Assembly: GCA_965220815.1 (NCBI GenBank) | Contig: OZ244846.1 | Location: forward strand, 2,244,353-2,308,352 | DNA from: Gammaproteobacteria bacterium | GTDB taxonomy: Bacteria > Pseudomonadota > Gammaproteobacteria > Eutrophobiales > Eutrophobiaceae | DNA length: 64,000 nucleotides | Direction of reading: 5' to 3' | Shown here: positions 2,899 to 59,869 of the stretch, in pieces | Numbering within the stretch: the stretch's first letter is position 1 | Layout: the number at the start of each line of letters is the position of its first letter | Notes under the pieces: generated by a model | Seen by the model: the letters and a program-made list of their open reading frames with translations, nothing else | Told to the model about the DNA's origin: nothing | Database searches by the model: none | Program-made: the position numbers and the translations under genes

Positions 2899-4147
2899 GG
2901 GTCACGTCACCGTATTCATCCACGCTCCAGGTGACGATGGCGTTGTAATGGTAAAAACCCTGCCTGCCCCGTTCGGCAAGAAGTTGTTCCCGTTCCGGTT
3001 GCACATATCCCGTCTCGTCAACGGCCCTGCTTTGCAATATGGCCGGCGACCCGTCCCATTGCCAGGGTATGCGGAAACGGGTAAACGCCTTGGGCAGCAC
3101 CGGGTCCTGCAATTCCGCCGGCGCCCAGGTCTTGCCGCCGTCAGCGGAGACGTCCACCTGTTTTATCCGTCCCCGGCCGCTCCAGGCCAGGCCGGTGACC
3201 TGGTACAGTCCCGGCCCCTGTTTCAATACCATGCCGCCTGACGGAGAAGTGATCAGTGATTTTGCCTCCATGGTGAACGTGAACATACGCGCCTTGCCGG
3301 AGGGCAACAGTTCGGTGTACCGCGCCGTTTCGTTCCTTGCCATGATGGGTTTCTCCACGGCCTTCAACGCCCGCAACCATTTCACGTTCAATACGCCCTC
3401 CCAGCCCGGCAGGATCAGGCGCAACGGGTAGCCGTTCTCCGGTCTCAGGCGCTCGCCGTTCTGGTACAGGGCCAGGATTGCATCGTCCATGGCTTTTTCG
3501 ATAGGTACGCTGATATTCATGGCAAAGGCGTCCGCGCCGTCCGCAATCAACCATTTGGCTGATTCTTCGATACCTGCCTCTGCCAGTACGGTCGCCAGCG
3601 GCACGCCGGTCCACTCACTGCATGAAACCAGGCCGTGAAAATAGCCGGCCTCCGCACGGGAGGGGGTTTTATTCCAGCCCGCGTTGCTGTTGCCGCCGCA
3701 CTCGACAAAACAGATCTGTGAACGCATCGGGTAACGCAACAGGTTGTCGATGCTGAAAAATGCCGGTTGGCGCACCAGGCCGTGCACCAGCAGACGGTGT
3801 TCATCAGGATTGATTTGCGGCACCCCGTTATGGTGCCGTTCGTAATGCAGGCCGTTCGGGGTGATCATGCCTTCCAGCCGATGCAGCGGCGTCCAGGAGG
3901 CGCCGTTGTTGCGCAATACCCGGTTCGGCGCCGGATAACGGACTACATCCTCTTCAAATTGCGCCGGTTGTCCATAAGGCGTAAACGGCTCACCCGGTAC
4001 GCTCATCGACTCGGGTCTGGCCGCTGCAGCCTGAACGTTACCCGCCACCAGTTGGGCGGTCCCCAGCGCGACGCCGCCCTGCAGGAACAGGCGCCGGTCC
4101 AGCAGACCGTTGCCGGCAACGGGGGTCAAGGGCGGAATGTTTTTCAT
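2834..4147 (-). CDS. sorA: Sulfite:cytochrome c oxidoreductase molybdopterin subunit (SorA/SUOX family), Tat-secreted
   Basis: Twin-arginine motif RRLFLQGG at the N-terminus. Moco-binding sulfite oxidase family sequence and dimerisation domain over 437 aa. Confidence 0.85.
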   Translation of the reverse strand: MKNIPPLTPVAGNGLLDRRLFLQGGVALGTAQLVAGNVQAAAARPESMSVPGEPFTPYGQPAQFEEDVVRYPAPNRVLRNNGASWTPLHRLEGMITPNGLHYERHHNGVPQINPDEHRLLVHGLVRQPAFFSIDNLLRYPMRSQICFVECGGNSNAGWNKTPSRAEAGYFHGLVSCSEWTGVPLATVLAEAGIEESAKWLIADGADAFAMNISVPIEKAMDDAILALYQNGERLRPENGYPLRLILPGWEGVLNVKWLRALKAVEKPIMARNETARYTELLPSGKARMFTFTMEAKSLITSPSGGMVLKQGPGLYQVTGLAWSGRGRIKQVDVSADGGKTWAPAELQDPVLPKAFTRFRIPWQWDGSPAILQSRAVDETGYVQPEREQLLAERGRQGFYHYNAIVTWSVDEYGDVTHVYDAEQKQSGTDVSIDADWD

Positions 4148-5251: not shown

Positions 5252-7070
<1,819 letters not shown>

Positions 7071-19176: not shown

Positions 19177-19220
19177 GGGGTCAGAGTAAGAAATTCTGCA
19201 AGAATTTTTACTCTGACCCC
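19177..19220. repeat. REP family 1 copy (GGGGTCAGAGTAAGAAATTCTGCAAGAATTTTTACTCTGACCCC)
   Basis: 44-bp palindrome between recJ and prfB. First of five copies in the window. Confidence 0.8.
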
Positions 19221-19242: not shown

Positions 19243-20341
19243 ATGCTTGAACTCACGTCAATCACCGCCCGCATCAAAGACTGCCAGGGAAGAATCGAAT
19301 CCCTGAGGAGGTATCTTTGACTTCGATGTCAAGGTCAAACGCCTGAATGAAGTCAGGCGGGAACTTGAAAAACCGGATATCTGGAGTGAGCCCGAACGCG
19401 CCCAGGCGCTGGGCAAGGAACGGGCGCTGCTTGAAAAAACGGTCGGGGCGATAGAAGCCGTCAGTACGGGAATGGACGATGTCGAGTTGTTGTTCGATAT
19501 GGCGAAGCAGGAAAACGACGTCGAAGCCATGGAAGAAGTTGTTGCCGACCTTGACAAATTCACCGCACAGGTTGAGGAGATGGAATTTCGCCGCATGTTT
19601 TCCGGCGAGATGGACCCGAATCATGCTTTTCTCGATATCCAGTCAGGTTCCGGCGGCACCGAAGCACAGGATTGGGCGGAAATGCTGCTGCGCATGTACC
19701 TGCGCTGGGGCGAACAACGGGGGTTCGCTACCGAGTTGATCGAAGTATCGCCCGGGGAAGTGGCCGGTATAAAAAGCGCTACGGTCAGGTATGAAGGCGA
19801 CTACGCGTACGGCTGGCTACGCACCGAAACCGGGGTGCACAGGCTGGTGAGGAAGTCCCCGTTTGATTCCGGCAACCGGCGCCATACTTCGTTCGCCTCC
19901 GTGTTCGTTGCGCCGGAAATAGATGACAATATCGAGGTGGACATCGATACTTCCGACCTGCGCGTGGACACTTACCGGGCGAGCGGGGCGGGCGGGCAGC
20001 ACGTAAACAAGACGGATTCCGCGGTAAGGCTGACCCATATCCCCACGGGCACCGTCGTACAGTGCCAGAACGATCGTTCCCAGCACAAGAACCGGGACCA
20101 GGCAATGAAACAAATGCGCGCCAAACTATACGAACTGGAACTGCAGAAGCGCATGGCGGAACAAAAGGCGCTGGAGGAATCCAAGGTCGACATCGGCTGG
20201 GGCAACCAGATCCGCTCTTACGTGCTGGATCAGTCCAGGATCAAGGATTTGCGTACCGGCGTGGAGACCGGCAATACCCAGGCCGTCCTGGACGGCGACC
20301 TGGACCGGTTCATGGAGGCCAGCCTCAAGGCCGGGGTATAA
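19243..20341 (+). CDS. prfB: Peptide chain release factor 2, expressed through a programmed +1 ribosomal frameshift at 19315-19321 (CTT TGA C)
   Basis: ORF1 reads [25 protein letters not shown] then an in-frame TGA at 19318. An internal SD-like GAGGAGG lies 3 nt upstream of CTTTGAC. The +1 frame continues [12 protein letters not shown]… into the 289-aa body with SPF and GGQ motifs. The join is approximately 19243-19317 + 19319-20341. Confidence 0.9.
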
Positions 20342-20347: not shown

Positions 20348-21832
20348 ATGACTAAAGACGACAACGAGATCATCAGGCAGCGGCGCGCGCAGCTGGAGGA
20401 ATTGCGCGCATCCGGCAACGCCTACCCCAACGACTTCAGGCGCAATATGCTGGCTGCCGACCTGCATGCCCGTTACGCTGATATGGACCGGGAAGAGTTG
20501 GAGGCAGAGGACGAAAAGTTCCATCTCGCGGGCAGGATGATGAGTCGCCGGGTCATGGGCAAGGTCGCGTTTGCCCATATCCTTGACATGTCCGGCCAGG
20601 TCCAGCTTTTCATCAGGCGTGATGCCTTGCCGGACGGGGACTATAGCGCATTCAGGAAATGGGATATCGGCGATATTATCGGCGTGACCGGCAGCATCTT
20701 CAGGACAAAAACCGGGGAACTCTCGATCCAGGCTGATTCCGTCACGCTGCTGGCCAAGTCCCTGCGACCCCTGCCGGAGAAGTTCCATGGCCTGTCCGAC
20801 CAGGAAACCCGCTACCGCCGCCGTTACCTGGATTTGATCACCAATGAAACCACCAGGCAGACATTCCAGGTCCGCAGTCGCGTGATCAACCTGGTCCGTG
20901 CTTACCTGGGCGGCAAGGGGTTTCTGGAAGTGGAAACGCCGATGATGCAGGCCATTCCCGGTGGCGCCGCGGCGCGGCCGTTTGTTACGCATCACAATTC
21001 CCTGGATATGGAACTGTACCTGCGCATCGCGCCGGAGTTATACCTGAAAAGGCTGGTCGTCGGCGGTTTTGAGAAAGTATTCGAAATCAACAGGAATTTT
21101 CGTAACGAAGGACTGTCGCTGCAGCACAATCCCGAATTTACCATGCTCGAGTTTTACTGGGCTTATGTCGGCTACGAGGACATGATGGCGCTGACTGAGG
21201 ACATGCTGCGTAACCTGGCGAAGGAAGTGAAAGGGGACAGCATCTTCGAATACCAGGGGGAAACCTGTGATTTCAGCAGGGACTTTCAGCGCATGAGTGT
21301 ACGGGAGGCCATTCTTGCCCATAACCCGGACATATCGGCGGGTGACCTGGAAGACCTTGACAGGCTGCGCGGCATAGCCGCCGGTCTGGGCGTGGAGGTA
21401 AAACAGGGTTACGGGATCGGTAAATTGCAGGTTGAATTATTTGAGAAAACCGTGGAGGCAAAACTCAGGCAACCCACGTTCATCACCGGTTATCCGATCG
21501 AAGTATCGCCCCTGTCCCGGCGTAATGATACTCAACCCGACCTGGCGGACCGGTTTGAGCTGTTTGTCGGCGGGCGCGAGATCGCCAACGGATTCTCCGA
21601 GTTGAACGACCCCGAAGATCAGGCCGGGCGATTTCGCCTGCAGGCCGAAGAGAAAGCCGCTGGTGACGAGGAGGCCATGCACTACGATGCCGACTACATC
21701 ACCGCCCTGGAATACGGTATGCCGCCCACCGCCGGGGAAGGTATCGGCATAGACCGGCTGGTCATGCTGCTGACGGATTCGGCATCCATTCGCGATGTAA
21801 TCCTGTTCCCCCAGCTACGCACAAAGGAATGA
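20348..21832 (+). CDS. lysS: Lysyl-tRNA synthetase (class II)
   Basis: OB-fold anticodon-binding N-terminus, class II motifs (…FRNEG…, …GGxGxGIDR). Immediately downstream of prfB as in other gammaproteobacteria. Confidence 0.9.
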   Translation: MTKDDNEIIRQRRAQLEELRASGNAYPNDFRRNMLAADLHARYADMDREELEAEDEKFHLAGRMMSRRVMGKVAFAHILDMSGQVQLFIRRDALPDGDYSAFRKWDIGDIIGVTGSIFRTKTGELSIQADSVTLLAKSLRPLPEKFHGLSDQETRYRRRYLDLITNETTRQTFQVRSRVINLVRAYLGGKGFLEVETPMMQAIPGGAAARPFVTHHNSLDMELYLRIAPELYLKRLVVGGFEKVFEINRNFRNEGLSLQHNPEFTMLEFYWAYVGYEDMMALTEDMLRNLAKEVKGDSIFEYQGETCDFSRDFQRMSVREAILAHNPDISAGDLEDLDRLRGIAAGLGVEVKQGYGIGKLQVELFEKTVEAKLRQPTFITGYPIEVSPLSRRNDTQPDLADRFELFVGGREIANGFSELNDPEDQAGRFRLQAEEKAAGDEEAMHYDADYITALEYGMPPTAGEGIGIDRLVMLLTDSASIRDVILFPQLRTKE

Positions 21833-21839
21833 GACAGGT

Positions 21840-21882
21840 GGGGTCAGAGTAAGAATTTCGCCAGAAATTTTACTCTGACCCC
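21840..21882. repeat. REP family 1 copy
   Basis: GGGGTCAGAGTAAGAATTTCGCCAGAAATTTTACTCTGACCCC directly after the lysS stop. Confidence 0.8.
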
Positions 21883-22018
21883 TTATTTCAAAGTGCAACT
21901 TTCCCATATATGGAAGGTCTATCATAGTGTTATACTGCAATTGTGAAGCAAAGCGCACCCGCGGCGCGCAGGACTTTCATAAACAGACATCATCAATCCA
22001 AGTCAGGAGGTATCACTC

Positions 22019-22384
22019 ATGTCCAAAGAGACTACTTTAAAACCCTTGGCAGCAGCATTGGGGACCACGTTCGCAGTTTCGCTGTCCCTCAGCCCCATTG
22101 CCAATGCCGCCGACAACCCATTCAGCATGACCGAGTTGTCCCGGGGTGGTTACATGGTTGCCGACGCGCACGGAGGTGAAGGCAAGTGCGGCGAAGGCAA
22201 GTGCGGCGAAGGTAAATGCGGCGAAGACAAGAAGGAAGGCGAAGGCAAGTGCGGCGAAGGCAAGTGCGGAGAAGACAAGAAGGAAGGCGAAGGCAAATGC
22301 GGCGAAGGCAAATGCGGAGAAGACAAGGAAGAAGGCGAGGGTAAATGCGGCGAAGGCAAGTGTGGTGACGGCAACGACGCATGA
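22019..22384 (+). CDS. Sec-secreted low-complexity protein with nine EGKCG motifs, the putative substrate ('precursor') of the downstream DUF692/DUF2063 enzymes (HvfA/bufferin-like)
   Basis: Strong RBS (AGGAGG 7 nt upstream). Signal peptide MSKETTLKPLAAALGTTFAVSLSLSPIANA|AD. The mature region is (GEGKCG)n interspersed with EDKKEG and ends GDGNDA, with 9 Cys, all in GKCG context. Immediately upstream of a translationally coupled DUF692-DUF2063 pair. Confidence 0.8.
   Translation: MSKETTLKPLAAALGTTFAVSLSLSPIANAADNPFSMTELSRGGYMVADAHGGEGKCGEGKCGEGKCGEDKKEGEGKCGEGKCGEDKKEGEGKCGEGKCGEDKEEGEGKCGEGKCGDGNDA
22170..22372 (+). repeat. Coding tandem repeat array (15-nt GAAGGCAAGTGCGGC units in a 48-nt higher-order unit) encoding the EGKCG repeats
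   Basis: Read directly. Several near-identical units occur back to back. The spurious track ORFs on other frames and strands (22122..22574, 22146..22454, 22150..22374) arise from this array. Confidence 0.8.
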
Positions 22385-22394
22385 TATGCGGCAA

Positions 22395-22415
22395 GCTCCG
22401 GACCCGGATCGGAGC
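22395..22415 (+). promoter_or_regulatory. Perfect 6-bp stem / 9-nt loop hairpin (GCTCCG-GACCCGGAT-CGGAGC) in the 86-nt spacer between the Cys-repeat gene and the DUF692 gene
   Basis: Read directly. The position is typical of intra-operon attenuators that skew precursor:enzyme stoichiometry in RiPP-like operons. Confidence 0.35.
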
Positions 22416-22470
22416 CTGATTATCCGGGCATATCCGAGTCAGCTCCGGGACTGATCCGGGAACGCAGGAT

Positions 22471-23361
22471 ATGCCTGGATCATACCCGGTACAGGGAGCC
22501 GGTCTGGGTCTGCGGCGGGCCTTCATGGGCTCGCTCGCAGACTCGTCGGGCTGGTTGCCGGAAATCGGCTTCATGGAAGTGGCGCCGGAGAACTGGATCG
22601 ACGTAGGAGGCCGCTTCGGGCGGCGCTTTCGCGAAATAGCCGAACGGGCGCCGCTTGTGTGTCACGGGTTGTCGCTCAACCTCGGCGGCCCGGCGCCCCT
22701 GGATGAGGCGTTCCTCCATAAAGTAAGACAGTTCCTCGATGCTTTCAATGTCCGTTGTTACAGCGAGCACCTCAGTTATTGCGGTGATGACGGCCACCTG
22801 TACGACCTGATGCCGATTCCATTCACGGAAGACGCGGTCCACTATACCGCCGCCAGGATCAGGCGCGTCCAGGATATTATCGGGCGGCGCCTGGCCATTG
22901 AAAACGTGTCCTATTACGCGGCGCCCGGACAGGAGATGACGGAAACGGAATTTATCAATAACGTGCTGGTCGAAGCCGACTGCGACCTGCTGCTGGACGT
23001 CAATAACATTTATGTCAACAGTATCAACCACCGCTATGATGCCGAGGCCTGGCTGAAGTCGCTGCCGGCGGAACGCATCGCTTACGCCCATGTTGCCGGT
23101 CATTACGTCGAGGCCGAGGACCTGAGGGTGGATACCCACGGCGCAGACGTGATCGATCCCGTTTGGAAGCTGCTCGAGACGGCCTACGCACATTTCGGTA
23201 TTTTCCCAACCCTGCTTGAACGGGATTTCAATATTCCCCCATTGCCCGAGTTGCTTGGTGAAGTCGGCAGGATTAGCCGGCTCCAGTCCGCTCAGACAGC
23301 ACATGGGGACGGACTTAAGTCCGTCCCCGGACAGCGTCTCCGGACAGAAAGTTCATCCTGA
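22471..23361 (+). CDS. DUF692 / MNIO (multinuclear non-heme iron oxidative enzyme, MbnB/HvfB/BufB-like) TIM-barrel protein
   Basis: Motif set typical of DUF692 (…GLGLRR…, …EVAPENW…, …YSEHLS…, …AIENVSYY…, …[11 protein letters not shown]…, …HVAGH…). 296 aa. Confidence 0.85.
23305..23328. repeat. REP family 2 copy (GGGGACGGACTTAAGTCCGTCCCC) embedded in the 3' end of the DUF692 ORF
   Basis: 24-bp perfect palindrome. The last ~20 codons of the DUF692 gene are encoded by it, so the tail may be artefactual. Confidence 0.7.
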
Positions 23362-24167
23362 TGAACCCGTCCTTGGCCAGGGACTCCTTTAAGGACATCC
23401 AGTACCGGTTTACCCGGCACATTCGCGACCCGGACAACGTACCGGCGCCGGAGGATATCGAAGAGCGCCGGATGGCGATCTACCGCGACCTGCTGTATCG
23501 CAACGTGGAAAGCTTCCTGGCGAACAGTTTTCCGGTGATGAGAAAGGTGCTCAAGGATGATGAATGGCATTCGCTGGTGCGCAAATATTTCAAAAACCAC
23601 CGGGCCCGAACGCCCCTGTTCCCCAGGATGCCCCAGGAGTTTCTCCAGTACCTGCAGGATGCAAGGCAAACCGCCGTAAGCATATACCCGTTCCTGCTCG
23701 AACTGGCTCACTACGAATGGGTGGAACTGGCCTTGTCCCTGGACACACGGGAGATCAGGCAGGACGGCATCAACCCGGACGGTGAGTTACTCTCAGGCGT
23801 TCCGGTATTGAACGAATTGTCCTGGTCCCTGGCCTATGAATACCCGGCACATCGTATCGGTCCGGATTTCCTGCCCGAAGCAAAACCGGCACAGCCTGTC
23901 TGCCTGCTCGTCTATCGGGACCGGCAGGACAAGGTAAGGTTTATCGAACTGAACCCCCTGGCCGCGCGCCTGGTCGATTGCCTCAGGGAGAATAAAGGCG
24001 GCAAAACCGGCCGGGAAATCCTCACGGAGATAGCTGCGGAAATAGCGCACCCCGACCCTGAGGCCGTGATCAGCGGCGGCGGCTCTGTACTTGAAGACAT
24101 GCGGGAAAAACAAATTGTCCTCGGAACGGAAGATGACGTCATTCCCGCGCATGCGGGAATCCAGTAG
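23361..24167 (+). CDS. DUF2063-family protein (MbnC/HvfC/BufC-like partner of MNIO enzymes)
   Basis: N-terminal motif F..IRDPDN..AP…RM.IYR.L….VESFL..SFPV…. Start overlaps the DUF692 stop (TGATG). Confidence 0.8.
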   Translation: MNPSLARDSFKDIQYRFTRHIRDPDNVPAPEDIEERRMAIYRDLLYRNVESFLANSFPVMRKVLKDDEWHSLVRKYFKNHRARTPLFPRMPQEFLQYLQDARQTAVSIYPFLLELAHYEWVELALSLDTREIRQDGINPDGELLSGVPVLNELSWSLAYEYPAHRIGPDFLPEAKPAQPVCLLVYRDRQDKVRFIELNPLAARLVDCLRENKGGKTGREILTEIAAEIAHPDPEAVISGGGSVLEDMREKQIVLGTEDDVIPAHAGIQ

Positions 24168-24192
24168 ACAAAGAGTCGCCCTGAGGGCGACA
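24137..24192. repeat. REP family 3 copy (two adjacent hairpins: GTCATTCCCGCGCATGCGGGAATCCAGT … CAAAGAGTCGCCCTGAGGGCGACAC)
   Basis: Nearly the same compound element recurs in inverted orientation at about 57707-57765. Sits between the convergent DUF2063 and argG genes. Confidence 0.7.
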
Positions 24193-24201
24193 CATTAATA
24201 A

Positions 24202-25407
24202 TTATTTCCTCATGCGCAGCCGCAACGCGTTCAGCTTGATGAAACCCTCAGCGTCCTTCTGGTCGTAGCTGCCCGCGTCGCTCTCGAAAGTGGCGATGTC
24301 CTCGCTGAACAGGCTGTCCGTTTCCGATTTGCGGCCGCAGACGATGACGTTGCCTTTGTACAGTTTCAGACGCACACGGCCGTTAACCGTCGCCTGGCTG
24401 TCATCGATCAGCTTCTGCAGGGCCAGGCGTTCCGGACTCCACCAGTAGCCGTTATAGATCATCCTGGCATAGCGCGGCATCAGGTCATCTTTCATGTGCG
24501 CCAGTTCGCGGTCCAGGGTGATGGCCTCAATGGCGCGATGTGCCTTGAGCAGTATTGTTCCGCCCGGGGTTTCATAACAGCCGCGTGATTTCATGCCCAC
24601 GTAGCGGTTCTCGACTATGTCGGTCCGGCCGATGCCGTGCCTGCCGCCGGTTTCGTTCAGCGCCTTCAACAACTGTGCTGGCGACATCGCGCCCCCGTTC
24701 AGGGCGCAGGCATCGCCTTTTCTGAAATCCAGTTCGACGACTTCCGGCTCATCAGGGGCATTCTCCGGCGCCACGCTCCAGCGCCACACCGATTCATCCG
24801 GTTCCTGCCACGGGTCTTCCAGGTCGCCGCCTTCATAGGAGATATGCAGCAGGTTGGCATCCATGGAATAGGGAGAGGAACCCGCGCGTTTGGCCTCGAT
24901 GGGGATACCGTGCCGTTCCGCGTAAGCCAGCAGTTTTTGCCGGGAATCGAGGTCCCACTCGCGCCACGGCGCAATAACCCTGATATCGGGCTTCAGGGCA
25001 TAGGCGCCCATTTCCAGCCGGACCTGGTCGTTGCCCTTGCCCGTGGCGCCGTGGGATATGGCGTCGGCGCCCGTTTCCCCGGCAATCTCCACCAGGCGTT
25101 TGGCGACCAGCGGACGGGCTATGGAGGTGCCCAGCAGGTATTCGCCTTCATAGATTGTGTTTGCCCGGAACATCGGGAAGACGTAATCACGCACGAACTC
25201 TTCCACCAGGTCCTCAATGAATATCTCCCTGACTCCCAGTTTTTCCGCCTTGGCCCGCGCCTGGTCAACTTCCTCGCCCTGGCCGATATCCGCGGTGAAG
25301 GTGACCACTTCGCAGTGGTAGGTATCCTGCAGCCATTTCAGGATGACGGAGGTGTCCAGTCCTCCGGAATAGGCAAGCACGACTTTGTTGACCGGTTTAT
25401 TGCTCAT
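24202..25407 (-). CDS. argG: Argininosuccinate synthase
   Basis: [11 protein letters not shown]-loop motif and full-length ArgG similarity. Start at [10 protein letters not shown]. Confidence 0.9.
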
Positions 25408-25423: not shown

Positions 25424-25447
25424 GGGGACGGATTTAAATCCGTCCCC
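25424..25447. repeat. REP family 2 copy (GGGGACGGATTTAAATCCGTCCCC)
   Basis: Perfect 24-bp palindrome between the NUDIX gene and argG. Confidence 0.8.
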
Positions 25448-31235: not shown

Positions 31236-31350
31236 AAACCTATACTTTGTTAGCTACTTGACTAAGTAGTATATAGGCTGATTATAAAATGTCAACACTT
31301 TTTTTAAAAAAATAGAACAGGGATGAACACACGCATTGCAAACTTTTCCA

Positions 31351-31416
31351 GGGTCAGAGTAACTTCGGCACTGACATTGACACCGGCTATGCATCCCGGG
31401 ATTTTACTCTGACCCC
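31351..31416. repeat. REP family 1 variant copy (arms GGGTCAGAGTAA … TTACTCTGACCCC with an enlarged 40-nt loop)
   Basis: Arms match family 1 but the centre differs. Located in the TetR/bcp divergent intergenic region. Confidence 0.6.
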
Positions 31417-31973: not shown

Positions 31974-32402
31974 TTAAAGCAGTTTCCCCTTCACCCGGCA
32001 CGAGTGCCCTTCAAACAGGGCAATGAGATTATCGTCCTGGTCGATTACCTTGACCCGGTAGACCCCGTAGCGACCGTCCTGTGACAGGTGTTCGGCGGTC
32101 GCCGTAAGCCGGTCTCCCGCCTTGCCCGGGCGTTTGTATTCGATGGTGCACCTTTGCGCCAGGTTCGATTCGTTGCGGGAATTGCAGGCGCAGGCGAAGG
32201 CCGTGTCCGCCAGGGTGAAGATGAAACCGCCGTGGCAGATGCCGTGGCCGTTCAGCATTTCTGCAGTTATCTGCATAGTCAGACGTGCAAAGCCTTCCCG
32301 CACGTCGACAATGGTAATTCCAATGCTTTTCGCGGCGACGTCCCTGGAATACATCGCATCGACGCAGGCGCGGGCGAGCTCGTCACCCGTCAGGTCAGTC
32401 AC
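31974..32402 (-). CDS. paaI: PaaI-type hotdog-fold acyl-CoA thioesterase
   Basis: Motif [20 protein letters not shown] typical of PaaI. Overlaps the paaZ stop. Confidence 0.7.
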
Positions 32403-34440
32403 CCCGGCGTTCCACCAGGGTCATAACGTCGTACAGCGCCACGGTCTTGTCATCCTGGTTGATGATCTCCACCGCCCACCTCACTACCCCCGTGGCCCGG
32501 GCGTCGTCGGGGCGCTTGTCTTTTTTGATCTTCTGTTTCACCACGATTTTTGTCCGGATCGTATCGCCGATGCCCACCGGTTCGATAAAGCGCAGGTTTT
32601 CCAGGCCGTAGTTGGCCAGGACAGGTCCGGGCGCCGGGTCCACGAACATGCCGGCAGCCGCGGAGATCAGGAAATACCCGTGCGCGACCCGTTTGCCGAA
32701 CAACGAATCCGCCGCGGCGGTCTCATCGAAATGCGCATAGAAAAAATCACCGGTCAGGCAACCGAAGTTGACGATATCCGCCTCGGTTACGGTGCGCCGG
32801 TAGCTCTCATGGGTCTCGCCGATCTGCAGCTCTTCAAAGTATTTGCGGAACGGGTGCACCTCGTCCGTCAGCGGCGCCGCGCCCTGGTGGTATTCGCCCG
32901 TGAGGCGCATCAGGGTAGTCGGTGATCCCTGGATCGCAGTGCGCTGCATGTAGTGTTTGATGGCCCGCTCACCCCCCAGTTCCTCACCGCCGCCGGCCCG
33001 TCCGGGTCCGCCGTGGACCAGCGCCGGCAGGGGCGAGCCGTGGCCGGTGGATTCTGCCGCACAGTCCCGGTTGATGACCAGCAGACGGCCGTGCCAGGCT
33101 GCCGTGCCGAGGACGACCTGCCGCGCCTCCGCATCATCAGAGGTAAACACCGAGCCTACCAGGCTGCCCTTGCCTTTTTTTGCCAGTTCGATGGCCTCGT
33201 CCGTATTGCGGTAGGGTATGACCGTGCAGACCGGTCCGAACGCTTCAATGTCATGGGGTTCGGCAGCGGTCAGGGGTTGGTCGCAATACAACAGGGTAGA
33301 TGGGAAAAACGCCCCCTTGTCCCTGTCCCCGCCCCGGGTTTCGAACTCCCGGGAGCCGCCGTACAGGATTTCACAGGAACCGACCAGCCGGTTCACGTTT
33401 TCCCACACGTCCTCCATCTGCGCCCGGCCCACCAGGGGCCCCATTTTAACGCCATCCACCGAGGGGTCGCCCAGGGGGAGCCTGTCCAGCCTTTGCTTCA
33501 AAGCGGCAACAACCGCATCAACTCTGTGCGCGGGTACAATGGCGCGCCGGATTGCCGTGCATTTCTGCCCGGCCTTCACCGTCATCTCGCGGGCCACTTC
33601 CCGGATGAACAGGTTGAACTCGTCAGAGTCCGGCTCTACCGTCTCACCCAATAGCGACAGGTTCAGGGAATCCGCCTCCATGTTGAAGGGGATGGAATTT
33701 GCCGTCACGCCCGGATGGGATTTCAGTTTCCGTCCGGTGCTCGCCGACCCGGTAAAGGTGACCACGTCCTGCTCCATGAGGTGGTCGAACAGGTCGCCAG
33801 TGCGGCCGCAGAGCAACTGGAACGACCCTTCCGGCAGCAGGCCGGAACTGATGATTTCCCGCGCCATTTTCTCGGTCAGGTACGAGGAAACGGTAGCCGG
33901 TTTCACCACCACGGGCATCCCCGCGCACAGGCTGGGCGCGATCTTCTCCAGCATGCCCCAGCAGGGGAAATTAAACGCGTTGATATGGACGGCGACGCCT
34001 TCCCTGGGTACCAGGATATGCCGGCCGGTAAACGTCCCTTCCTTCGACAGGCGCTCCTGCTCGCCTTCCACCAGGAAGGTCTCGTTGGGGAATTCGCGCC
34101 GCACCAGGCTGCTGTAACTGAACAGCGTGCCGATGCCGCCTTCTATGTCGATCCAGCTGTCGGAATGGGTCGCTCCGGTCCAGGCCGATATTTCGTAGAA
34201 TTCCTCCTTGCGTTCCATCAGGTATTGCGCCAGCGCCTTCAGGCGCAGGGCGCGCTCATGGAACGTCATCCCGCGCAGCGCAGGACCACCGGTTTCCCGG
34301 GCATGGCGCAGGACGGCCCCGAAATCCACTCCGTCACTGGAAACGGTGCCTATGAAATCGCCGTTTACCGCATTCACGACCCGGGCGCCCTCGCTTTGCC
34401 CGCTGAACCATTCGCCTGTCACATAACTTTGTATTTTCAT
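32395..34440 (-). CDS. paaZ: Bifunctional PaaZ (oxepin-CoA hydrolase / 3-oxo-5,6-dehydrosuberyl-CoA semialdehyde dehydrogenase: N-terminal ALDH + C-terminal MaoC hotdog)
   Basis: 681 aa. The ALDH catalytic region (…TGS..TG…, …AGQKCTA…) is followed by the MaoC-like dehydratase fold. Confidence 0.85.
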
Positions 34441-34569
34441 TTCTCGATGTATCCGTTATAACATTTCATTAACCGGTTCCCGTTCATTATCTTTTAAGAT
34501 ATGATACGGAAATTGGATAATATCAGAAATTTCTGTAATAGTTTAAAACTGCCATTAAAGGTGCACAGT

Positions 34570-35871
34570 ATGACAGAGCAGGGGACATTTGACACCCTGG
34601 AGCCCATTGAAAAAGCCGGCATCGATGAGTTGCGCAACCTGCAACTGCAACGGCTGAAGTGGAGCCTGGAACACGCCTACGCCAACGTTGAAAGCTACCG
34701 GAAGAAATTTGACGCTGCCGGCGTCCATCCGTCAGACCTGAAGGAACTTGCCGACTTGTCCAAATTCCCGTTTACCGACAAGCATGACATGCGCGATAAC
34801 TACCCGTTCGGCATGTTTGCGGTGCCCATGGACGACGTGGTGCGCATACACGCCTCCAGCGGCACCACCGGCAAACCGGTGGTGGTGGGCTATACCCGCA
34901 ATGACATCGAGGTCTGGAGCCGCGTCGTGGCCCGCTCTATCCGGGCGGCCGGCGGCACTCATAAAGACAAGATACACGTGGCGTACGGCTACGGCCTGTT
35001 CACCGGCGGCCTGGGCGCCCATTACGGCGGCGAACTGATGGGTTGCACCGTCATACCCATGTCCGGCGGCCAGACGGAAAAACAGGCGCAACTCATACAG
35101 GACTTCGACCCCGACATCATCATGTTGACGCCGTCATACATGCTCAGTATCGCCGACGAACTGGAGCGCCAGGGCGTCGATTGCCGCAAGCTCAGGTTGC
35201 GAGTGGGGATCTTCGGCGCCGAACCCTGGACGGATTCCATGCGCGCCAACCTGGAACAGAGGCTGGACATCGACGCGGTGGACATATACGGTCTGTCCGA
35301 GGTCATGGGGCCCGGCGTTGCCCAGGAATGCGTGGAGACGAAGGATGGCCCCACCGTCTGGGAGGACCACTTCTACCCGGAAATCATCGACCCGGACACG
35401 GGAAAGGTATTGCCGGACGGGAAGGAGGGTGAACTGGTGTTCACCAGCCTCACCAAGGAAGCCCTGCCCGTAGTGCGCTACCGCACCCGGGACCTGACCC
35501 GGCTGCTGCCGGGAACCGCGCGCACCATGCGCCGCATGGGCAAGATCACCGGCCGCAGTGACGACATGCTGATCATCCGCGGCGTAAACGTGTTCCCCAC
35601 CCAGGTGGAAGAGCAGGTCCTCAAGGTCCCCGGCCTTGCTCCCCACTACCAGATCGAGGTCACCCGCAGCGGCAACCTGGACGAAATGAGCGTCAACGTG
35701 GAACTAGCCCCTGACGCCGATGCGATGGCGAAGCAGCCGGCGGCTGCCGCACTGCAGAAACACATCAAGGACCTGATCGGCGTCTCGGCAAGGGTCAACG
35801 TTCACGAAGAGGGCGGCGTGGCGCGCTCGGAAGGGAAGGCAAAACGCGTGATCGACAGGCGGAAGTTGTGA
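34570..35871 (+). CDS. paaK: Phenylacetate-CoA ligase
   Basis: Full-length PaaK similarity (SSGTTGKP AMP-binding motif, characteristic C-terminal domain). Start at the internal ATG (MTEQGTFDTLEP…). Confidence 0.9.
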   Translation: MTEQGTFDTLEPIEKAGIDELRNLQLQRLKWSLEHAYANVESYRKKFDAAGVHPSDLKELADLSKFPFTDKHDMRDNYPFGMFAVPMDDVVRIHASSGTTGKPVVVGYTRNDIEVWSRVVARSIRAAGGTHKDKIHVAYGYGLFTGGLGAHYGGELMGCTVIPMSGGQTEKQAQLIQDFDPDIIMLTPSYMLSIADELERQGVDCRKLRLRVGIFGAEPWTDSMRANLEQRLDIDAVDIYGLSEVMGPGVAQECVETKDGPTVWEDHFYPEIIDPDTGKVLPDGKEGELVFTSLTKEALPVVRYRTRDLTRLLPGTARTMRRMGKITGRSDDMLIIRGVNVFPTQVEEQVLKVPGLAPHYQIEVTRSGNLDEMSVNVELAPDADAMAKQPAAAALQKHIKDLIGVSARVNVHEEGGVARSEGKAKRVIDRRKL

Positions 35872-37055: not shown

Positions 37056-38582
37056 CTACTGGTATTCCCTGTCATAAACCATTCCGCCTACATAAGTAAC
37101 AGTTGCCGATACAGCGCCATCGGCAGAACGGGAGACCCATTGACCGCTCTTCTTGCCGTCCACGTAAAGACCTTCAAATACACCGCCATCATCGTAGCGG
37201 AAGACCCACTCACCGCTCTTCTTGCCCTCTACATAGGAGCCTTCCTCCACATGGGCGGAGGTGCGGAGGGTCCACTGGCCGTGCCGCTTGCCATCCATAT
37301 AAGGGCCTTCGGATACGCTGCCATCAGTGTAGCGAATGACCCACTGACCCTGCCGCTTGCCGTCCACGTGGGGCCCTTCCGCTACAATGACGCTGGCAGA
37401 TGAGCGCATCCCACCGAGATGCATGGCGTCCACGTAGCGGTCGTTCTCCACAGTGCCATCGGCGTAACGAATGATCCCCTGGCCTTGTGGCATGCCGTCC
37501 ACGTAGAAGCGTTCGTATACATTTCCATCGGCGTAACGGAAGTTCCAATGGCCGTGCCGTTCGTCGTCCACGAAGGAGCCTTCCTCCACATTTCCATTGG
37601 CATGACGGAAGATCCACTGGCCGTTCCGCTTGCCCCCCACATAGGAGCCTCTCGCTATACTGCCCTCGAAGGTGCGATGGGTCCACTGGCCGTGCATCTC
37701 GCCGTTCACATAAGAGCCTCCCCCATCCTCGCCATCGGCAAAGCGAATCAGCCAATGACCATGCTTAATGCCGTTCACGTAGGGGCCTTCCTCCACATCG
37801 CCATTGGCATGGCGAATCACCCAATGACCGTGCTGTTTGCCGTCCACGAAGGAGCCTCCCCCCACATCGCCACTGGCATAGCGAATGACCCACTGACCGT
37901 GTTCCTTGCCGTCCAAGTAGGAGCCTTCGAGTACAGCAGCGTCATCAGCAAGGCGAATCACCCACGGACCGTGCTGTTTGCCGTCCACGAAGGAACCTTC
38001 ATACACAACAGCGTCATCGACGGAGCGCATGATCCAGCGGCCGTGCCGCTTGCCGCCCTTAAACTGCCCTGTGTTTGTGTTCTTTGTCTCTCCATCACCT
38101 TTCAAATCCCAGGTATCCTCACCCATTCCTTCCGCCAGTCCGTTGGCACATCTGCCGCTCCATGTGACGGTTGAGTTGGCTATCAGACTGGGGTTCCAGA
38201 TATAACATCCGGTTGGGTCTTCCAACTCCATCCAGCATGCGCTGCCCTCCGGTTTGTCCGCGCACGTCATCTTGTCTTCCTGTAGCTTTTCTGCATCCGA
38301 TGGTGCGCCAATTCCGTTGCCCATCATGGCCGCAATTACGCTTTCCGCTATGCCCGCCTCCCGGAGCGCAACAAGCTGTTCTTCCGACATGTCAAAGTCG
38401 GTTCGACCGGACCGGATTATGGCGATGATGATTTCAGTCTCCAGCCCAGCCCGGTTCAAGCGCAGGATGTCCTCATTGGTGAGCGCCGCATCGTCGGCGC
38501 CAGGGGCCGGTGTGATAACAAGTATTAGAAGCCATACAGAAACCATTTGCCGGAAGAGGCTAGTCAGGGGCATCGTTTTCAT
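37056..38582 (-). CDS. Secreted MORN-repeat protein, about 15 tandem ~23-aa MORN-like units
   Basis: Signal peptide (MKTMPLTSLFRQMVSVWLLILVITPAPGA), then a Cys-containing N-terminal domain, then repeated G.Y.DGK.HG.WVIR.ADG…EG units. The start at 38582 forms an ATGA overlap with the upstream methyltransferase-like gene. Confidence 0.7.
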   Translation of the reverse strand: MKTMPLTSLFRQMVSVWLLILVITPAPGADDAALTNEDILRLNRAGLETEIIIAIIRSGRTDFDMSEEQLVALREAGIAESVIAAMMGNGIGAPSDAEKLQEDKMTCADKPEGSACWMELEDPTGCYIWNPSLIANSTVTWSGRCANGLAEGMGEDTWDLKGDGETKNTNTGQFKGGKRHGRWIMRSVDDAVVYEGSFVDGKQHGPWVIRLADDAAVLEGSYLDGKEHGQWVIRYASGDVGGGSFVDGKQHGHWVIRHANGDVEEGPYVNGIKHGHWLIRFADGEDGGGSYVNGEMHGQWTHRTFEGSIARGSYVGGKRNGQWIFRHANGNVEEGSFVDDERHGHWNFRYADGNVYERFYVDGMPQGQGIIRYADGTVENDRYVDAMHLGGMRSSASVIVAEGPHVDGKRQGQWVIRYTDGSVSEGPYMDGKRHGQWTLRTSAHVEEGSYVEGKKSGEWVFRYDDGGVFEGLYVDGKKSGQWVSRSADGAVSATVTYVGGMVYDREYQ

Positions 38583-39397
38583 CTCTGGCATTCCAGTTCC
38601 CAACCCATGCTGCCAGCCAATTCTGCGAGTTCCCGGTTCCGCCCTTTCACGAGTTTCGCCAAGTTATCAGAGAGCAGAACCCCACATCCCTTAAGGTCCT
38701 GGCTGGGCTTTGCCCCGCAGTCAGACCACAAAACCTGCCACGCCTCACATTGCGTGCGTTCCAGCAACTTCAGCGGCTTTGTAGGCCAGAAAAACGGATA
38801 CCAGGCCGCAAACGACTGATCTTGGCATTTCAGTTTTTTACATGTCTCAGCCAGGGAATTCCAATCCCTGTCCCTGGCTGCATTTGGAGAAAACGGAGGG
38901 TCGAGAAATGTCAAATCTTTGTCATTTTTATCGACGGCTCTTGTGAATCCATCATCTTGACAGAATGTCACTTCAACATTTTCGGGAACATATCCCCTTT
39001 TTTTCAGGTTGTACAAATCTTCATCACTATAATGGCATGCAACTTCCTCGCTGTTATCAAAGAGTGAAATCTGTACCCGTTTGAATCTTTTAGCAAGTAC
39101 ATTTGCTACGACCAGCCAACCGGACGGATATTTTTCCGGCGAATATTTTTTGACTATGTCCACATAAAAGTTGTCATTTGTTTCGCTATCAATTAAACAT
39201 TTGACGCCATGCTGCCATCCCCTGCCTTTGCTCAGGATATGAACAGGCGCGCCTGCGTGGCAATCAATATAGTGAATGGAATCTGAAGCCGAGGATAAAT
39301 TCCTTGCAATAATGGTCAGTATGAAATGTTTCCAGACATCACCCCTGTTTCCAGCTTTTTTGGAGTGATTGTAGCGTTTAACGTGGGAGTTGCCCAT
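38579..39397 (-). CDS. RlmJ/DUF519-family N6-adenine methyltransferase-like protein, 272 aa, divergent and low GC
   Basis: YNHSKKAGNRGDVWKHFIL matches RlmJ YRHSFHAGNHADVLKH. YIDCHAGAP matches YLDTHAGAG. FLDPPF matches IDPPYE (catalytic DPPY/F). AAWYPFF matches ALWYPV. Confidence 0.55.
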   Translation of the reverse strand: MGNSHVKRYNHSKKAGNRGDVWKHFILTIIARNLSSASDSIHYIDCHAGAPVHILSKGRGWQHGVKCLIDSETNDNFYVDIVKKYSPEKYPSGWLVVANVLAKRFKRVQISLFDNSEEVACHYSDEDLYNLKKRGYVPENVEVTFCQDDGFTRAVDKNDKDLTFLDPPFSPNAARDRDWNSLAETCKKLKCQDQSFAAWYPFFWPTKPLKLLERTQCEAWQVLWSDCGAKPSQDLKGCGVLLSDNLAKLVKGRNRELAELAGSMGWELECQR

Positions 39398-39421
39398 GAT
39401 CAGTATCAGTTGTGCTTCTGT

Positions 39422-39907
39422 TCAGTTGTGCTTCTCTAGCATCTCATTCAGCCAGGCTTTGGGGGGCTTGAGTTCTTTGCCTTTCAGCTTTAAAACCCCG
39501 TTCCGGACTACTTCAATTTCCAGGCGCTGCCTACCGTTTCTCCGGTAACTTCCGATCCAGCCCATCTGGCCAGAGTTGGGCAGGTCCGCCCAATTGCCAG
39601 CCATGCTTACGCCGTTATCCACTAAGACCCGGGTGAATGCCTTATGGTCGAATCGAATCGTACCGTTGTCCACGTAGTTAAACTGCCCTGCCAGTTTCTT
39701 TGCCAACCAGTCACTGTAGTAATTCGGGTTACGATACTCCTTAACTGCTTCCTTGATTGCATCCTCAATTACGGATTTTTTTAAAGCATACTCAACGTGT
39801 GCTTCCACTCTTTCCCAAACCTCGTCCGTGACTTCAATTCCACGCCAAATCTCATGGCCATTTGGCCATTCCTCTCTTTTTATTTCTACTTCGATGATTT
39901 TATTCAT
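39422..39907 (-). CDS. Hypothetical protein, 161 aa, first gene of the low-GC three-gene operon
   Basis: ORF with RBS-compatible spacing. No recognisable domain. GC content clearly below the window average. Confidence 0.4.
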   Translation of the reverse strand: MNKIIEVEIKREEWPNGHEIWRGIEVTDEVWERVEAHVEYALKKSVIEDAIKEAVKEYRNPNYYSDWLAKKLAGQFNYVDNGTIRFDHKAFTRVLVDNGVSMAGNWADLPNSGQMGWIGSYRRNGRQRLEIEVVRNGVLKLKGKELKPPKAWLNEMLEKHN

Positions 39908-39943
39908 CTTTAGGCTTTTGGCTCATCTGTGTGTGGACAAGGA

Positions 39944-40450
39944 CTAATACTCCGTCACACCCAGCTTGTCCTTGATTTTGACAATCAGTTCTTCGCGGCG
40001 ATGATGCATGTCGATCAGCGGTTCCTTGCGTAACTTTGCGATTTCCTCCGAGTCATAGGGCACGAACGGGTCGGGAAGTTCATTTTTGCTGAAATTCAGC
40101 AGCATCCAGTTCATCACGTCGGCCAGTTCCTGGTCCGAGATGGGGGCGCCGGCCGCGCCCGGGACCTGTACGATGAATTCCCTGCCGCCGGGCACGTGCA
40201 GGAAGTAACCGACGAAATCGTTCATCTTCGGTACGTTACCCTTGGAGCCGGACCCGTCCGGCAGGTGGCAGCCCTGGCAGTTCAGGATGTAGTTCTGGCG
40301 CGCAAGTATTTCATTGGCGCCGGTAGTTGCGCTGGCGCTTAACAGGATCAGGAGCAGGAATCCGGTGAATAATGTGTTGCCAAGGGTGGCATGTTTGTCT
40401 ACGTCCCTGTTCCTGGATACCGGCCATTCCCTGGCCGGTATGACGAACAA
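39944..40450 (-). CDS. Monoheme c-type cytochrome, periplasmic, candidate electron acceptor for the adjacent amine dehydrogenase
   Basis: A single CQGCH motif. The proposed TTG start at 40450 yields a signal peptide (…TLFTGFLLLILLSASATTGA). The track ORF extends further upstream into mauA. Confidence 0.6.
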   Translation of the reverse strand: MFVIPAREWPVSRNRDVDKHATLGNTLFTGFLLLILLSASATTGANEILARQNYILNCQGCHLPDGSGSKGNVPKMNDFVGYFLHVPGGREFIVQVPGAAGAPISDQELADVMNWMLLNFSKNELPDPFVPYDSEEIAKLRKEPLIDMHHRREELIVKIKDKLGVTEY

Positions 40451-40458
40451 GGCGTTCG

Positions 40459-40977
40459 TCACTTTATCGCCACGCCCAGGATGAGGTTCACGGTGCAGTG
40501 ATAAGCCGTGCTCTCCGTGCCCAGGCACCAGTTGTAATCATTGGAGGTATGGGGCCGGTAGGTGGGTCTGTCCCCTTCGTTCCTGTTGCAGAAGCAGTTG
40601 CCGCAGGACGTTTTGCCGCAGCAGTCGTTGTAGGAGATGATGTAATCCTTGCCGTCACCCGGGTTTTTGCAGGTGCCGATCCAGGTGATAGTCGACATCT
40701 CCGTGCCTGGCGGGCAACTGTTGATGGTGCCGCCGCAGCAGGAGCACAGGTAGCCGTCAATGGCGCAGTTGCGCCAGTATTCGCAGGTGGCCGGGTCTCC
40801 CGGGTCTACCGCGGGCGGGCTTGGTTGTTTCCCTTCCGCGGCGCGGGCGACCGGAAGCAGGGGCATGACCGATCCGCCTGCGATTACTGCGCCGAGTCCG
40901 CCCAGGAATCCCCTGCGGGAAGACGTCCTGGCTACGTTTCTGGTGAGGTTTTCCGTTAGTCTGTCCAACCAGTTCAT
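40459..40977 (-). CDS. mauA: Methylamine/aralkylamine dehydrogenase light (small, TTQ-bearing) subunit
   Basis: Tat-like signal (SSRRGFLGGLG), 12-Cys pattern, and close collinear similarity to the Paracoccus MADH light chain (CEYWRNCAIDGYLCSCCGGT.NSCPPGT … YNWCLGTE…YHC), including both TTQ tryptophan positions. Confidence 0.8.
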   Translation of the reverse strand: MNWLDRLTENLTRNVARTSSRRGFLGGLGAVIAGGSVMPLLPVARAAEGKQPSPPAVDPGDPATCEYWRNCAIDGYLCSCCGGTINSCPPGTEMSTITWIGTCKNPGDGKDYIISYNDCCGKTSCGNCFCNRNEGDRPTYRPHTSNDYNWCLGTESTAYHCTVNLILGVAIK

Positions 40978-46906: not shown

Positions 46907-46931
46907 CAGGCACAGCCTGGGGATTGATCCT

Positions 46932-46974
46932 GGGGTCAGAGTAAGAATTTCGTCAGAAATTTTACTCTGACCCC
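46932..46974. repeat. REP family 1 copy
   Basis: GGGGTCAGAGTAAGAATTTCGTCAGAAATTTTACTCTGACCCC upstream of, or within the 5' end of, dctP. Confidence 0.8.
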
Positions 46975-47201
46975 ATATATCAAGTATTGTCTCCCCGAAT
47001 TTCATGTCCCCGGAATTACGCTTGCAACCCATGCAATATAACAGTAAATTGGAAAATCCGCATACGGGTACACACTAGACAGCGCCGGAGAAATGAAACC
47101 AGCCGAATACATTTCCTGTGACGGACTCGGCCGCGCCCTGGCCGTTGAATGCGCCGTTGCCTGAACAACGGTAGAATGTCTGTGAGGACTTACGTCGCAG
47201 G

Positions 47202-50633: not shown

Positions 50634-50676
50634 GGGGTCAGAGTAAAATTTCTGGCGAAATTCTTACTCTGACCCC
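50634..50676. repeat. REP family 1 copy
   Basis: GGGGTCAGAGTAAAATTTCTGGCGAAATTCTTACTCTGACCCC. Confidence 0.8.
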
Positions 50677-58819: not shown

Positions 58820-58830
58820 GGAGAGAATCC

Positions 58831-59864: not shown

Positions 59865-59869
59865 AAACC

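Follow-up and report, generated by a model that had tools for sequence, protein, structure and literature searches.

We analysed a three-gene operon, hvfA-hvfB-hvfC, at positions 22019-24167 (plus strand) of a 64,000-nt stretch (the window) of contig OZ244846.1 from an uncultured gammaproteobacterium. The first gene, hvfA (22019-22384, plus strand), encodes a 121-residue precursor with a predicted Sec-type signal, a conserved DNPFSMTELSRGGYMVA segment and nine EGKCG units on a 16-residue period. The second, hvfB (22471-23361, plus strand), encodes a 296-residue multinuclear non-heme iron oxidase (MNIO; DUF692) with its conserved domain at residues 9-272 and a tail of about 24 residues derived from a repetitive extragenic palindromic (REP) element. 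The third, hvfC (23361-24167, plus strand), encodes a 268-residue partner (PME type 1) that combines DUF2063 with a recognition element (RRE) for ribosomally synthesized and post-translationally modified peptides (RiPPs), with profile-matched domains at residues 13-256. The hvfA-hvfB gap is 86 nt (22385-22470), and hvfB and hvfC share one base, the A of TGATG, such that hvfC starts at the last base of hvfB. An earlier, sequence-only reading of this DNA had called a secreted EGKCG-repeat precursor, a candidate copper binder, with an MNIO and a DUF2063 partner; that core call was right, and the 86-nt gap and the TGATG junction were confirmed. We conclude that the locus is very probably an hvfABC-type (oxazolin, Buf_EGKCG or captophorin) RiPP operon, and that this operon is a further member of a well-described family, ordinary rather than unusual.

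The maturase is identified by several profiles. HvfB matched Pfam PF05114 (MbnB_TglH_ChrH) with E = 5.4e-102 and scored 436.5 bits against the NCBIfam HvfB equivalog NF003818 (cutoff 360), with residues 9-272 aligned over the 264-position model; the NCBIfam name for this open reading frame (ORF) is HvfB family MNIO-type RiPP peptide maturase. Scores were under the cutoffs of the BufB model (262.6 bits; cutoff 310) and the MbnB model TIGR04159 (49.1 bits; cutoff 325). The match to PDB 3BWW, an H. somni HvfB homologue, had E = 1.3e-72, and in the phmmer alignment residues H65, H100, E144, D176, N179, H207, H211, D221, H223 and E250 are identical to those of 3BWW. These conserved iron-site residues include the equivalents of HvfB site-3 N175, D242 and H244 (mapped indirectly, via 3BWW), which are essential for the activity of HvfB, a protein to which 3BWW is 72% identical (bioRxiv 10.64898/2026.07.17.739211).

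HvfC likewise matched both of its expected domains, PF09836 (DUF2063, now HvfC_N; E = 6.8e-26) and PF22106 (NGO1945_C, now HvfC_C; E = 1.5e-30), as well as NCBIfam NF050145 (HvfC family RiPP maturation protein; 305.1 bits, cutoff 142) and PDB 3DEE (N. gonorrhoeae NGO1945; E = 1.7e-9). The DUF692 and DUF2063 assignments that had been proposed for the two downstream ORFs are thus borne out by PF05114 and PF09836, and the homology to Haemophilus HvfABC, earlier proposed from the precursor motif, is supported by NCBIfam curated models, passed for HvfB, HvfC and the HvfA-family repeat domain.

The precursor consists of MSKETTLKPLAAALGTTFAVSLSLSPIANA and then ADNPFSMTELSRGGYMVADAHGG, followed by (EGKCG)3-EDKKEG-(EGKCG)2-EDKKEG-(EGKCG)2-EDKEEG-(EGKCG)2-DGNDA, and all nine of its cysteines sit inside the nine EGKCG units. 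Residues 1-30 comprise a K-rich n-region and a hydrophobic core, with cleavage predicted between ANA and AD (judged by eye and by conservation). The 91-residue mature part contains 26 G, 17 E, 14 K, 9 C and 7 D; thus the nine units, the Sec-like signal and the G/E/K/C-rich mature part reported earlier can all be seen in the ORF at 22019-22384. At the DNA level the array is a true tandem repeat with a period of 48 nt, 3.5 copies and a 92% match. Several ORFs in other frames overlap this repeat, which yields them through its low complexity; homologues, a predicted signal peptide and a profile match are confined to the 22019 frame. That match is to the NCBIfam domain NF050137 (KCGExKCG_twice), at 61.9 bits (cutoff 19.5) over three stretches. 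Pfam gave no family for the precursor at E<=0.1, DUF2282 included, and the precursor is therefore not a Buf1-type bufferin.

A database search with HvfA gave at least 6,667 homologues with E<=1e-3; in the best 120 of these we counted between 2 and 11 EGKCG units, most often 8, and six of the proteins had nine. Counts reached 14 in the 83 related loci that we recovered through HvfB. Repeat number had earlier been considered unusual; nine units are in fact mid-range. Near-identical relatives differ only in the number of units: seven in P0001 (98% identical), nine in L005 and 13 in L004, and near relatives most often space their Cys by 5 and 11 residues, the distances that make up the 16-residue unit. 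The locus thus exemplifies repeat-number polymorphism between near-identical strains.

A second conserved feature of the precursor lies directly after the predicted cleavage site. NPF is present in 116 of the 120 homologues and NPFxx(E/D)..GY in 96, and an AxA immediately precedes NPF in 84. Because of this conservation and position, the segment is likely to be the site recognised by HvfC. In line with this, the N-terminal region is reported to optimise modification (PMC11252979), and MmrC of Microbulbifer was modelled as engaging the MmrA leader (PMC12538549). An AlphaFold2 model of HvfA (52-sequence alignment) had a mean predicted local distance difference test (pLDDT) score of 45, with values under 50 and no secondary structure in the repeat region; such a low-confidence model would fit a flexible substrate but is no proof of one. 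We also considered a beta-helix fold, as reported for a mid-size family member in one survey (PMC12452194), for which the same model was uninformative.

One relative carries a different kind of precursor. In L006 (HvfB 92% identical; precursor at 5429-5911 of that locus, plus strand), most of the central EGKCG units are swapped for a Met/Glu/Asp-rich stretch (MMMMMGMDEMENMEMGESEMAKMEDMMDEMDMMEEMDGMMMM...). Met-rich stretches are reminiscent of Cu(I)-binding segments in periplasmic copper proteins, and this insert gives an independent hint at a copper function.

The gene set is stable across relatives. The order hvfA-hvfB-hvfC, with MNIO and HvfC genes directly downstream of the precursor, was kept in all seven loci that we reached from the precursor side, in agreement with the earlier expectation that the Cys-repeat gene has MNIO neighbours. 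From the hvfB side, hvfB adjoins hvfC in 82 of 83 loci, and an EGKCG-type ORF lies immediately 5' of hvfB in most. The closest genome is a metagenome-assembled genome with an HvfB identity of 94%; an exact-match look-up of the window HvfB in public assemblies gave no record. PADLOC defence-system models had no matches to the three cassette proteins or nearby unannotated ORFs. A known RNA family was also considered, and at E<=1 Rfam gave two chance-level matches in 21500-24600, far under the gathering scores.

The reference system is that of H. influenzae, in which HvfBC install six modifications of -4 Da on the AEGKCGEGKCG motifs of the Sec-signal protein HvfA, to give oxazolin, a Cu(I)-binding product (Manley et al. 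2024, PMC11252979). The window operon resembles H. influenzae HvfABC(X) in its precursor with EGKCGEGKCG units and a Sec signal (predicted in the window), its MNIO, its DUF2063/RRE partner and the order A-B-C. It differs in that the precursor has nine sites rather than six, a 16-residue period, EDKKEG linkers and no N-terminal Cys pair (C38/C43 in H. influenzae HvfA), in that the operon lacks a DoxX gene (hvfX), and in its host, an environmental gammaproteobacterium, not a pathogen. Compared to 3BWW, the window HvfB lacks an insert of about 20 residues at about residues 209-231.

Oxazolin was first assigned as oxazolone/thioamide (PMC11252979) and was reassigned to 5-thiooxazole by the same group (10.64898/2026.06.05.730506). 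Gadgil et al. also reassigned it to 5-thiooxazole, named the class captophorins, and characterised fontiphorin (seven sites) and gonophorin (10.1101/2025.11.18.689057). Thus, of the two types of Cys chemistry in the sequence-only reading, the thiooxazole option stands, and oxazolone/thioamide has been superseded in oxazolin and its relatives. The window operon shares EGKCG 5-mers (seven modified sites in FonA) and an MNIO with a PME-type-1 partner with Fontimonas thermophila FonABC and the Neisseria gonophorin system, and differs from them in lineage and unit number. Captophorins, compared here by description only, are known to carry 5-thiooxazoles and to bind Cu(I), and a role in stress or detoxification has been proposed for them.

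Microbulbifer mmrA-C yields a Cu(I)-binding product (bulbicupramide), tentatively assigned as a thiooxazole, from precursors with 5-8 EGKCG Cys (PMC12538549). MmrABC is like the window operon in having three genes, an EGKCG precursor and a conserved N-terminal region, and Microbulbifer too belongs to the Gammaproteobacteria (marine in its case). Microbulbifer loci L059, L064 and L065 encode HvfB proteins 67-69% identical to the window protein and have no DoxX, which is nowhere mentioned in the mmrABC paper (PMC12538549). In contrast, HvfC is only 38-41% identical, and the Microbulbifer precursors have KKK linkers and another signal and N-terminal sequence.

More distant systems share the enzyme class. 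The survey by Antoine, Leprevost et al. 2025 (PMC12452194) counts about 2,000 Buf_EGKCG/oxazolin precursors, which span 31-506 residues and carry as many as 58 Cys, in clusters that mix precursor, MNIO, DUF2063 and DoxX 'in various combinations'. Bufferins BufABC(D), which have a thiooxazole-based copper-buffering role, are like the window operon in belonging to the same MNIO mega-cluster and in having a PME-type-1 partner, a precursor with a Sec signal (predicted in the window) and an optional DoxX (PMC12452194). Unlike bufferins, the window precursor lacks DUF2282 with its four conserved Cys, HvfB falls under the BufB cutoff, and there are no adjacent sigma/anti-sigma (NrsF) genes. In methanobactin MbnABC an MNIO also acts on Cys of a ribosomal peptide to form Cu(I) ligands, and there the product is oxazolone/thioamide; unlike MbnABC, the window operon has a DUF2063 partner in place of MbnC, a predicted Sec signal in place of a leader, and no transport genes.

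The hvfA start is preceded by a Shine-Dalgarno sequence AGGAGG (22005-22010, plus strand; 8 nt 5' of the ATG), the ribosome binding site (RBS) that had been noted earlier, and CAGGAGG is invariant in four relatives; judged from this RBS only, hvfA would be strongly expressed. Farther upstream is a motif like a sigma-E or other extracytoplasmic function (ECF) sigma factor promoter, CAACTT-N16-TCTAT (21896-21922, plus strand), with a -35 AACTT at 21897-21901 and GGTCTA at 21916-21921. It is followed by an extended -10-like element, TGtTATACT (21928-21936, plus strand), a candidate sigma-70 promoter. In the aligned upstream regions of four relatives two blocks are conserved, AACTT-N16-TCTA and TGnTATACT (TG.TAT.CT in all four). 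A simple sigma-70 scan did not call the second element, since it has no good -35; its TATACT persists in L004 despite the displacement of the upstream motif by a REP there.

The first of these blocks recurs across the family. Searching 250 nt 5' of hvfA on the sense strand in the 55 related loci with an identifiable hvfA start, we found AAC[CT]T[TCA]-N13-17-GTC in 34, compared to a mean of 0.97 (maximum 5) in shuffled sequences and 0 in the reverse complement. The consensus, aGAAACTTTTc-N12-aGTC, resembles that of E. coli sigma-E (GGAACTTTT / GGTCAAAA, with a 16-nt spacer preferred; PMC1312014), and the motif upstream of hvfA may by this resemblance function as a promoter. With a position weight matrix (PWM), the hvfA site ranks third of about 128,000 window positions (score 14.6). 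Related clusters are under such control in other bacteria: RpoE2 in H. influenzae and SigE in N. meningitidis govern the homologous DoxX cluster (PMC7907618), and in S. meliloti a cluster of the DUF692-DUF2063 type is governed by RpoE7 (PMC6180224).

The best PWM match in the window (40029-40059, plus strand; score 17.7) lies elsewhere, inside a block of three minus-strand ORFs at 38579-40528 (272, 161 and 194 residues). These ORFs have no Pfam or PADLOC matches, and a MORN-repeat protein gene (37056-38603) adjoins them. We had also considered a CueR/MerR-type operator upstream of hvfA, from a near-dyad ACTTTCC-N7-GGAAGGT (21898-21918) like the CueR box of E. coli copA. Its right half-site is not conserved in the four relatives, and the conserved part, AACTT...GGTCTA, fits an ECF promoter; thus, we dropped the idea.

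Between hvfA and hvfB, where one hairpin had been noted before, two are predicted (free energy -43.6 kcal/mol, z = -2.55). The first (22395-22415, plus strand) has a 7-bp stem, no U-tract after it, and a single copy in the window. The second (22422-22480, plus strand) has a 14-bp stem (22422-22435 paired with 22467-22480) that covers the AGGA and the ATG (22471-22473) of hvfB; its equivalent is predicted in L005 and L003. More distant relatives have an hvfA-hvfB gap of 16-18 nt and no hairpin. Two other explanations of the spacer were set aside, an intrinsic terminator after hvfA (a plus-strand scan found none between hvfA and hvfB, and the hairpins lack a U-tract) and a further REP or miniature inverted-repeat transposable element (MITE) (the 86 nt are single-copy in the window). 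The buried hvfB start, together with the lack of a terminator, suggests that the second hairpin probably throttles translation of the enzyme relative to its precursor.

The position of the operon is a conserved one. The near neighbours are housekeeping genes, recJ, prfB, lysS, argG and aceEF, together with a NUDIX gene. The order prfB-lysS-hvfABC-argG is kept in L001, L003, L085 and L086; among 82 related loci, the gene directly 5' of hvfA is lysS in 27, at HvfB identities as low as 64%, argG follows downstream in 11, and both flank the operon in eight. The GC content of the cassette, 0.53-0.60, matches that of its flanks. The sequence-only reading had inferred horizontal insertion from REP elements at the two ends of the cassette, and had regarded the position between lysS and argG in a non-pathogen as unusual. 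Horizontal insertion is not supported, and we rejected a recent event on the conserved synteny, the flat GC and the dispersal of REPs throughout the window; the position is shared with relatives, and a non-pathogen context is the norm for the family.

The lack of DoxX, also listed as unusual, is real for this cassette and common in the family. A DoxX gene (PF07681) lies directly 3' of hvfC in 41 of the 82 related loci and is absent from the other 41, about 33 of which have more than 2 kb of downstream sequence. The clade with HvfB identity of at least 80% is without DoxX, except L010, as are the Microbulbifer and Kangiella loci. In the 64-kb window, tblastn with the 41 DoxX proteins of related loci (PF07681-confirmed) gave no match better than E = 0.03. 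Thus, the locus is a compact, DoxX-less version of the operon in a conserved housekeeping position, and DoxX is dispensable at the level of the locus.

Another gene recurs at the 3' side of the hvf genes in relatives. A protein of about 500 residues with a glutamate-synthase domain (PF01645), of FMN type and with an N-terminal hydrophobic segment, is encoded just 3' of hvfC or DoxX in 14 loci (L012, L014, L015, L028, L031, L033, L036, L046, L052, L053, L055, L058, L061 and L072); it is not named in the passages of the family surveys that we consulted.

In the wider window, prfB (19244-20341) has a programmed +1 frameshift site, AGGAGG-TAT-CTT-TGA-C, at 19306-19321, owing to which the ORF list shows only the downstream frame (19472-20341). 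Pfam matches are consistent with the aromatic- and sulfur-catabolic setting proposed earlier. Those of phenylacetate-catabolism type include a PaaZ-like aldehyde dehydrogenase/MaoC, an AMP-binding ligase and a 4HBT thioesterase, and the ORFs at 57869-64000 look by eye like paaABCDE. A sulfite-oxidase-type Mo enzyme with a cytochrome c, a 3-hydroxyanthranilate dioxygenase and a VanA-like Rieske oxygenase are also present. The regions concerned are 57869-64000, 31974-35871, 2359-4147, 5539-7070 and 51973-53070.

The window contains members of at least three REP families, which are dispersed over many boundaries between genes. REP-A, a 43-nt palindromic repeat (GGGGTCAGAGTAA...TTACTCTGACCCC), lies between lysS and hvfA at 21840-21882, where it probably doubles as the lysS 3' hairpin; its five window copies (19177-19220, 5' of prfB; 21840-21882; 31350-31416; 46931-46975; 50634-50676) compare with about one half-site match expected by chance, and it also occurs in L006. 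In the 3' end of hvfB, an insertion at 23305-23328 forms a perfect palindrome of 24 nt (GGGGACGGACTTAAGTCCGTCCCC), REP-B, from a family of 24-25 nt, GGGGAC(G/A)GA...TC(C/T)GTCCCC, with five window copies at 23305, 25424, 44105, 50593 and 53150; the copy at 25424-25447, 5' of argG, gives the listed argG ORF a spurious terminal extension. Together, REP-A and REP-B occur at about one copy per 6 kb. REP-C (24141-24192), a composite of two palindromes, ATTCCCGC-GCAT-GCGGGAAT and GTCGCCC-TGA-GGGCGAC, overlaps the hvfC stop; it has a single copy in the window and two in L003, and its second hairpin, at the same position in L008, is terminator-like for the convergent argG. REPs thus do lie at both cassette ends (REP-A and REP-C), as had been claimed, but REP-B lies inside hvfB and the elements are window-wide.

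These insertions have changed the ends of two genes. In L007, L008, L001, L002, L009 and L010, hvfB extends about 35 nt beyond the hvfC ATG; this comparison shows the window REP-B (23305-23328 plus flanks) to be an insertion that replaced the ancestral overlap. REP-B shifts the hvfB frame, and the TGA that closes the new tail is that of TGATG. REP-C encodes the last ~9 residues of HvfC (DVIPAHAGIQ), whereas the proteins of relatives end in ...IVLGTE. The hvfB-hvfC junction (window 23290-23361) is a repeated target of REP/MITE-like insertion in this clade: L004 has two REP-B copies there (6830-6935), and L003 (9260-9550) and L006 (6835-7000) have a larger inverted-repeat element of about 150-330 nt. 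All of these junction insertions break the ancestral overlap, and the hvfB and hvfC ORFs stay intact. The locus thus shows REP insertions rewriting gene ends without destroying the operon.

Characterised homologues and structure prediction suggest how such an operon would work, from its regulation and translational throttling to the chemistry, the copper binding and the order of modification and export. Transcription would start from the sigma-E/ECF-like promoter (21896-21922), from the TATACT -10 (21931-21936), or from both, and would give a single mRNA for all three genes. The strong hvfA RBS, with the hvfB start held in the 14-bp stem, would provide precursor in excess over enzyme. Cytoplasmic HvfC (DUF2063 plus RRE) would bind the precursor, probably via the conserved DNPF..EL..GY segment after the signal peptide, and enable HvfB, the MNIO, to take on its mixed-valent diiron form. 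HvfB would then use O2 for a four-electron oxidation of each of the nine EGKCG Cys to 5-thiooxazole, predicted to change the mass by -4 Da per site (-36 Da in total) and to give a chromophore near 302-305 nm. The modified protein would be exported by Sec and cut after ANA30, leaving a 91-residue acidic, glycine-rich product in the periplasm or outside the cell. Its thiooxazole N/S donors may bind Cu(I) at about one Cu per two rings, and so 4-5 Cu, and its role would most likely be to buffer or detoxify copper when the cell faces envelope, oxidative or metal stress.

Several observations weigh against parts of this account. The precursor scored 55.9 bits against the HvfA equivalog NF050188, under the cutoff of 95, and we therefore class it with the HvfA family rather than as an orthologue of HvfA. 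Cu binding by pairs of rings would call for an even number of sites, and nine is odd; for the family as a whole, the literature considers both detoxification and acquisition as the role. With respect to regulation, in L004 a REP separates the sigma-E-like motif from the -10 element, so that transcription in this clade may instead depend on the TATACT promoter; moreover, no sigma factor was found among the 30 window ORFs scanned against Pfam, nor was a copper-homeostasis gene found among the same 30. The minimum-energy fold of L004, the closest relative, lacks a stem of the 22422-22480 type, and since the right arm of this hairpin is coding, its conservation is partly forced; the z-score is only -2.55. 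Finally, the REP insertions altered the C-terminal tails of both HvfB and HvfC, outside the profile-matched domains, and a functional effect is possible.

The role in copper buffering has to be weighed against acquisition, in which the product would be a secreted, methanobactin-like chalkophore, cut to small thiooxazole peptides and re-imported. Manley et al. raised acquisition as a possibility for oxazolin (PMC11252979), Gadgil et al. left undecided whether maturation ends with a single polypeptide or with fragments cut by a protease (10.1101/2025.11.18.689057), and the KK/EDKKEG linkers between pairs of units would be easy protease targets. However, the cassette has no protease, TonB-dependent receptor, MbnT/MbnE-like importer or multidrug and toxic compound extrusion (MATE) exporter next to it, export would rely on a Sec signal, not on a leader with its transporter, and an envelope-stress-type promoter motif suits defence better than scavenging. 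We regard a chalkophore as unlikely. Less probable still is the conversion of the Cys to oxazolone/thioamide pairs as in methanobactin. This was the first assignment for oxazolin (PMC11252979), which NCBIfam names still carry, but the original authors and an independent group have since reassigned oxazolin, fontiphorin and gonophorin to 5-thiooxazole (10.64898/2026.06.05.730506; 10.1101/2025.11.18.689057), and the Microbulbifer product was assigned, tentatively, as a thiooxazole (PMC12538549). The enzyme itself also argues for the HvfB type, at 436 bits on the HvfB model versus 49 on that of MbnB.

The REP insertions suggest another explanation, that the cassette is a decaying or non-functional remnant whose precursor is at most an unmodified Cys-rich metal binder. 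The frame of hvfB was shifted by REP-B, at the cost of the ancestral overlap of ~35 nt, which would have disrupted translational coupling, and REP-C supplies the last ~9 hvfC codons. Moreover, unmodified HvfA already binds 2-3 Cu(I) (PMC11252979), and the Microbulbifer cluster was silent under laboratory conditions (PMC12538549). Nonetheless, the three ORFs are intact, both enzymes score over their equivalog cutoffs with the active-site residues present, the insertions lie outside the profile-matched domains (HvfB 9-272, HvfC 13-256), and the new TGATG stop/start overlap keeps the two genes juxtaposed. Close relatives with different insertions also keep the genes intact, which argues for purifying selection. 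Thus, we consider decay highly improbable and favour a working hvfABC operon whose modified product would buffer or detoxify copper.

The HvfABC family has been experimentally characterised in four genera, surveyed at thousands of members and entered in Pfam and NCBIfam; routine annotation would put a name to each of the three genes. We put forward, tentatively and as somewhat less probable than its converse, the joint proposal that the EGKCG operons of many Gammaproteobacteria share a sigma-E-like promoter (aGAAACTTTT-N-GTC.a) that would place them in an envelope-stress ECF regulon even without a nearby sigma gene, and that in this clade expression would also be tuned by the hairpin that sequesters the hvfB start and by rapid gain and loss of 48-nt units (7, 9 or 13 sites), which would set copper capacity. 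The conserved sigma-E-like motif is the sole, and modestly, new lead from this locus. If confirmed, its occurrence in 34 of the 55 upstream regions would link copper-binding peptides to envelope-stress control beyond Haemophilus and Neisseria, and a shared promoter, if true, would provide a handle on the regulation of the family.

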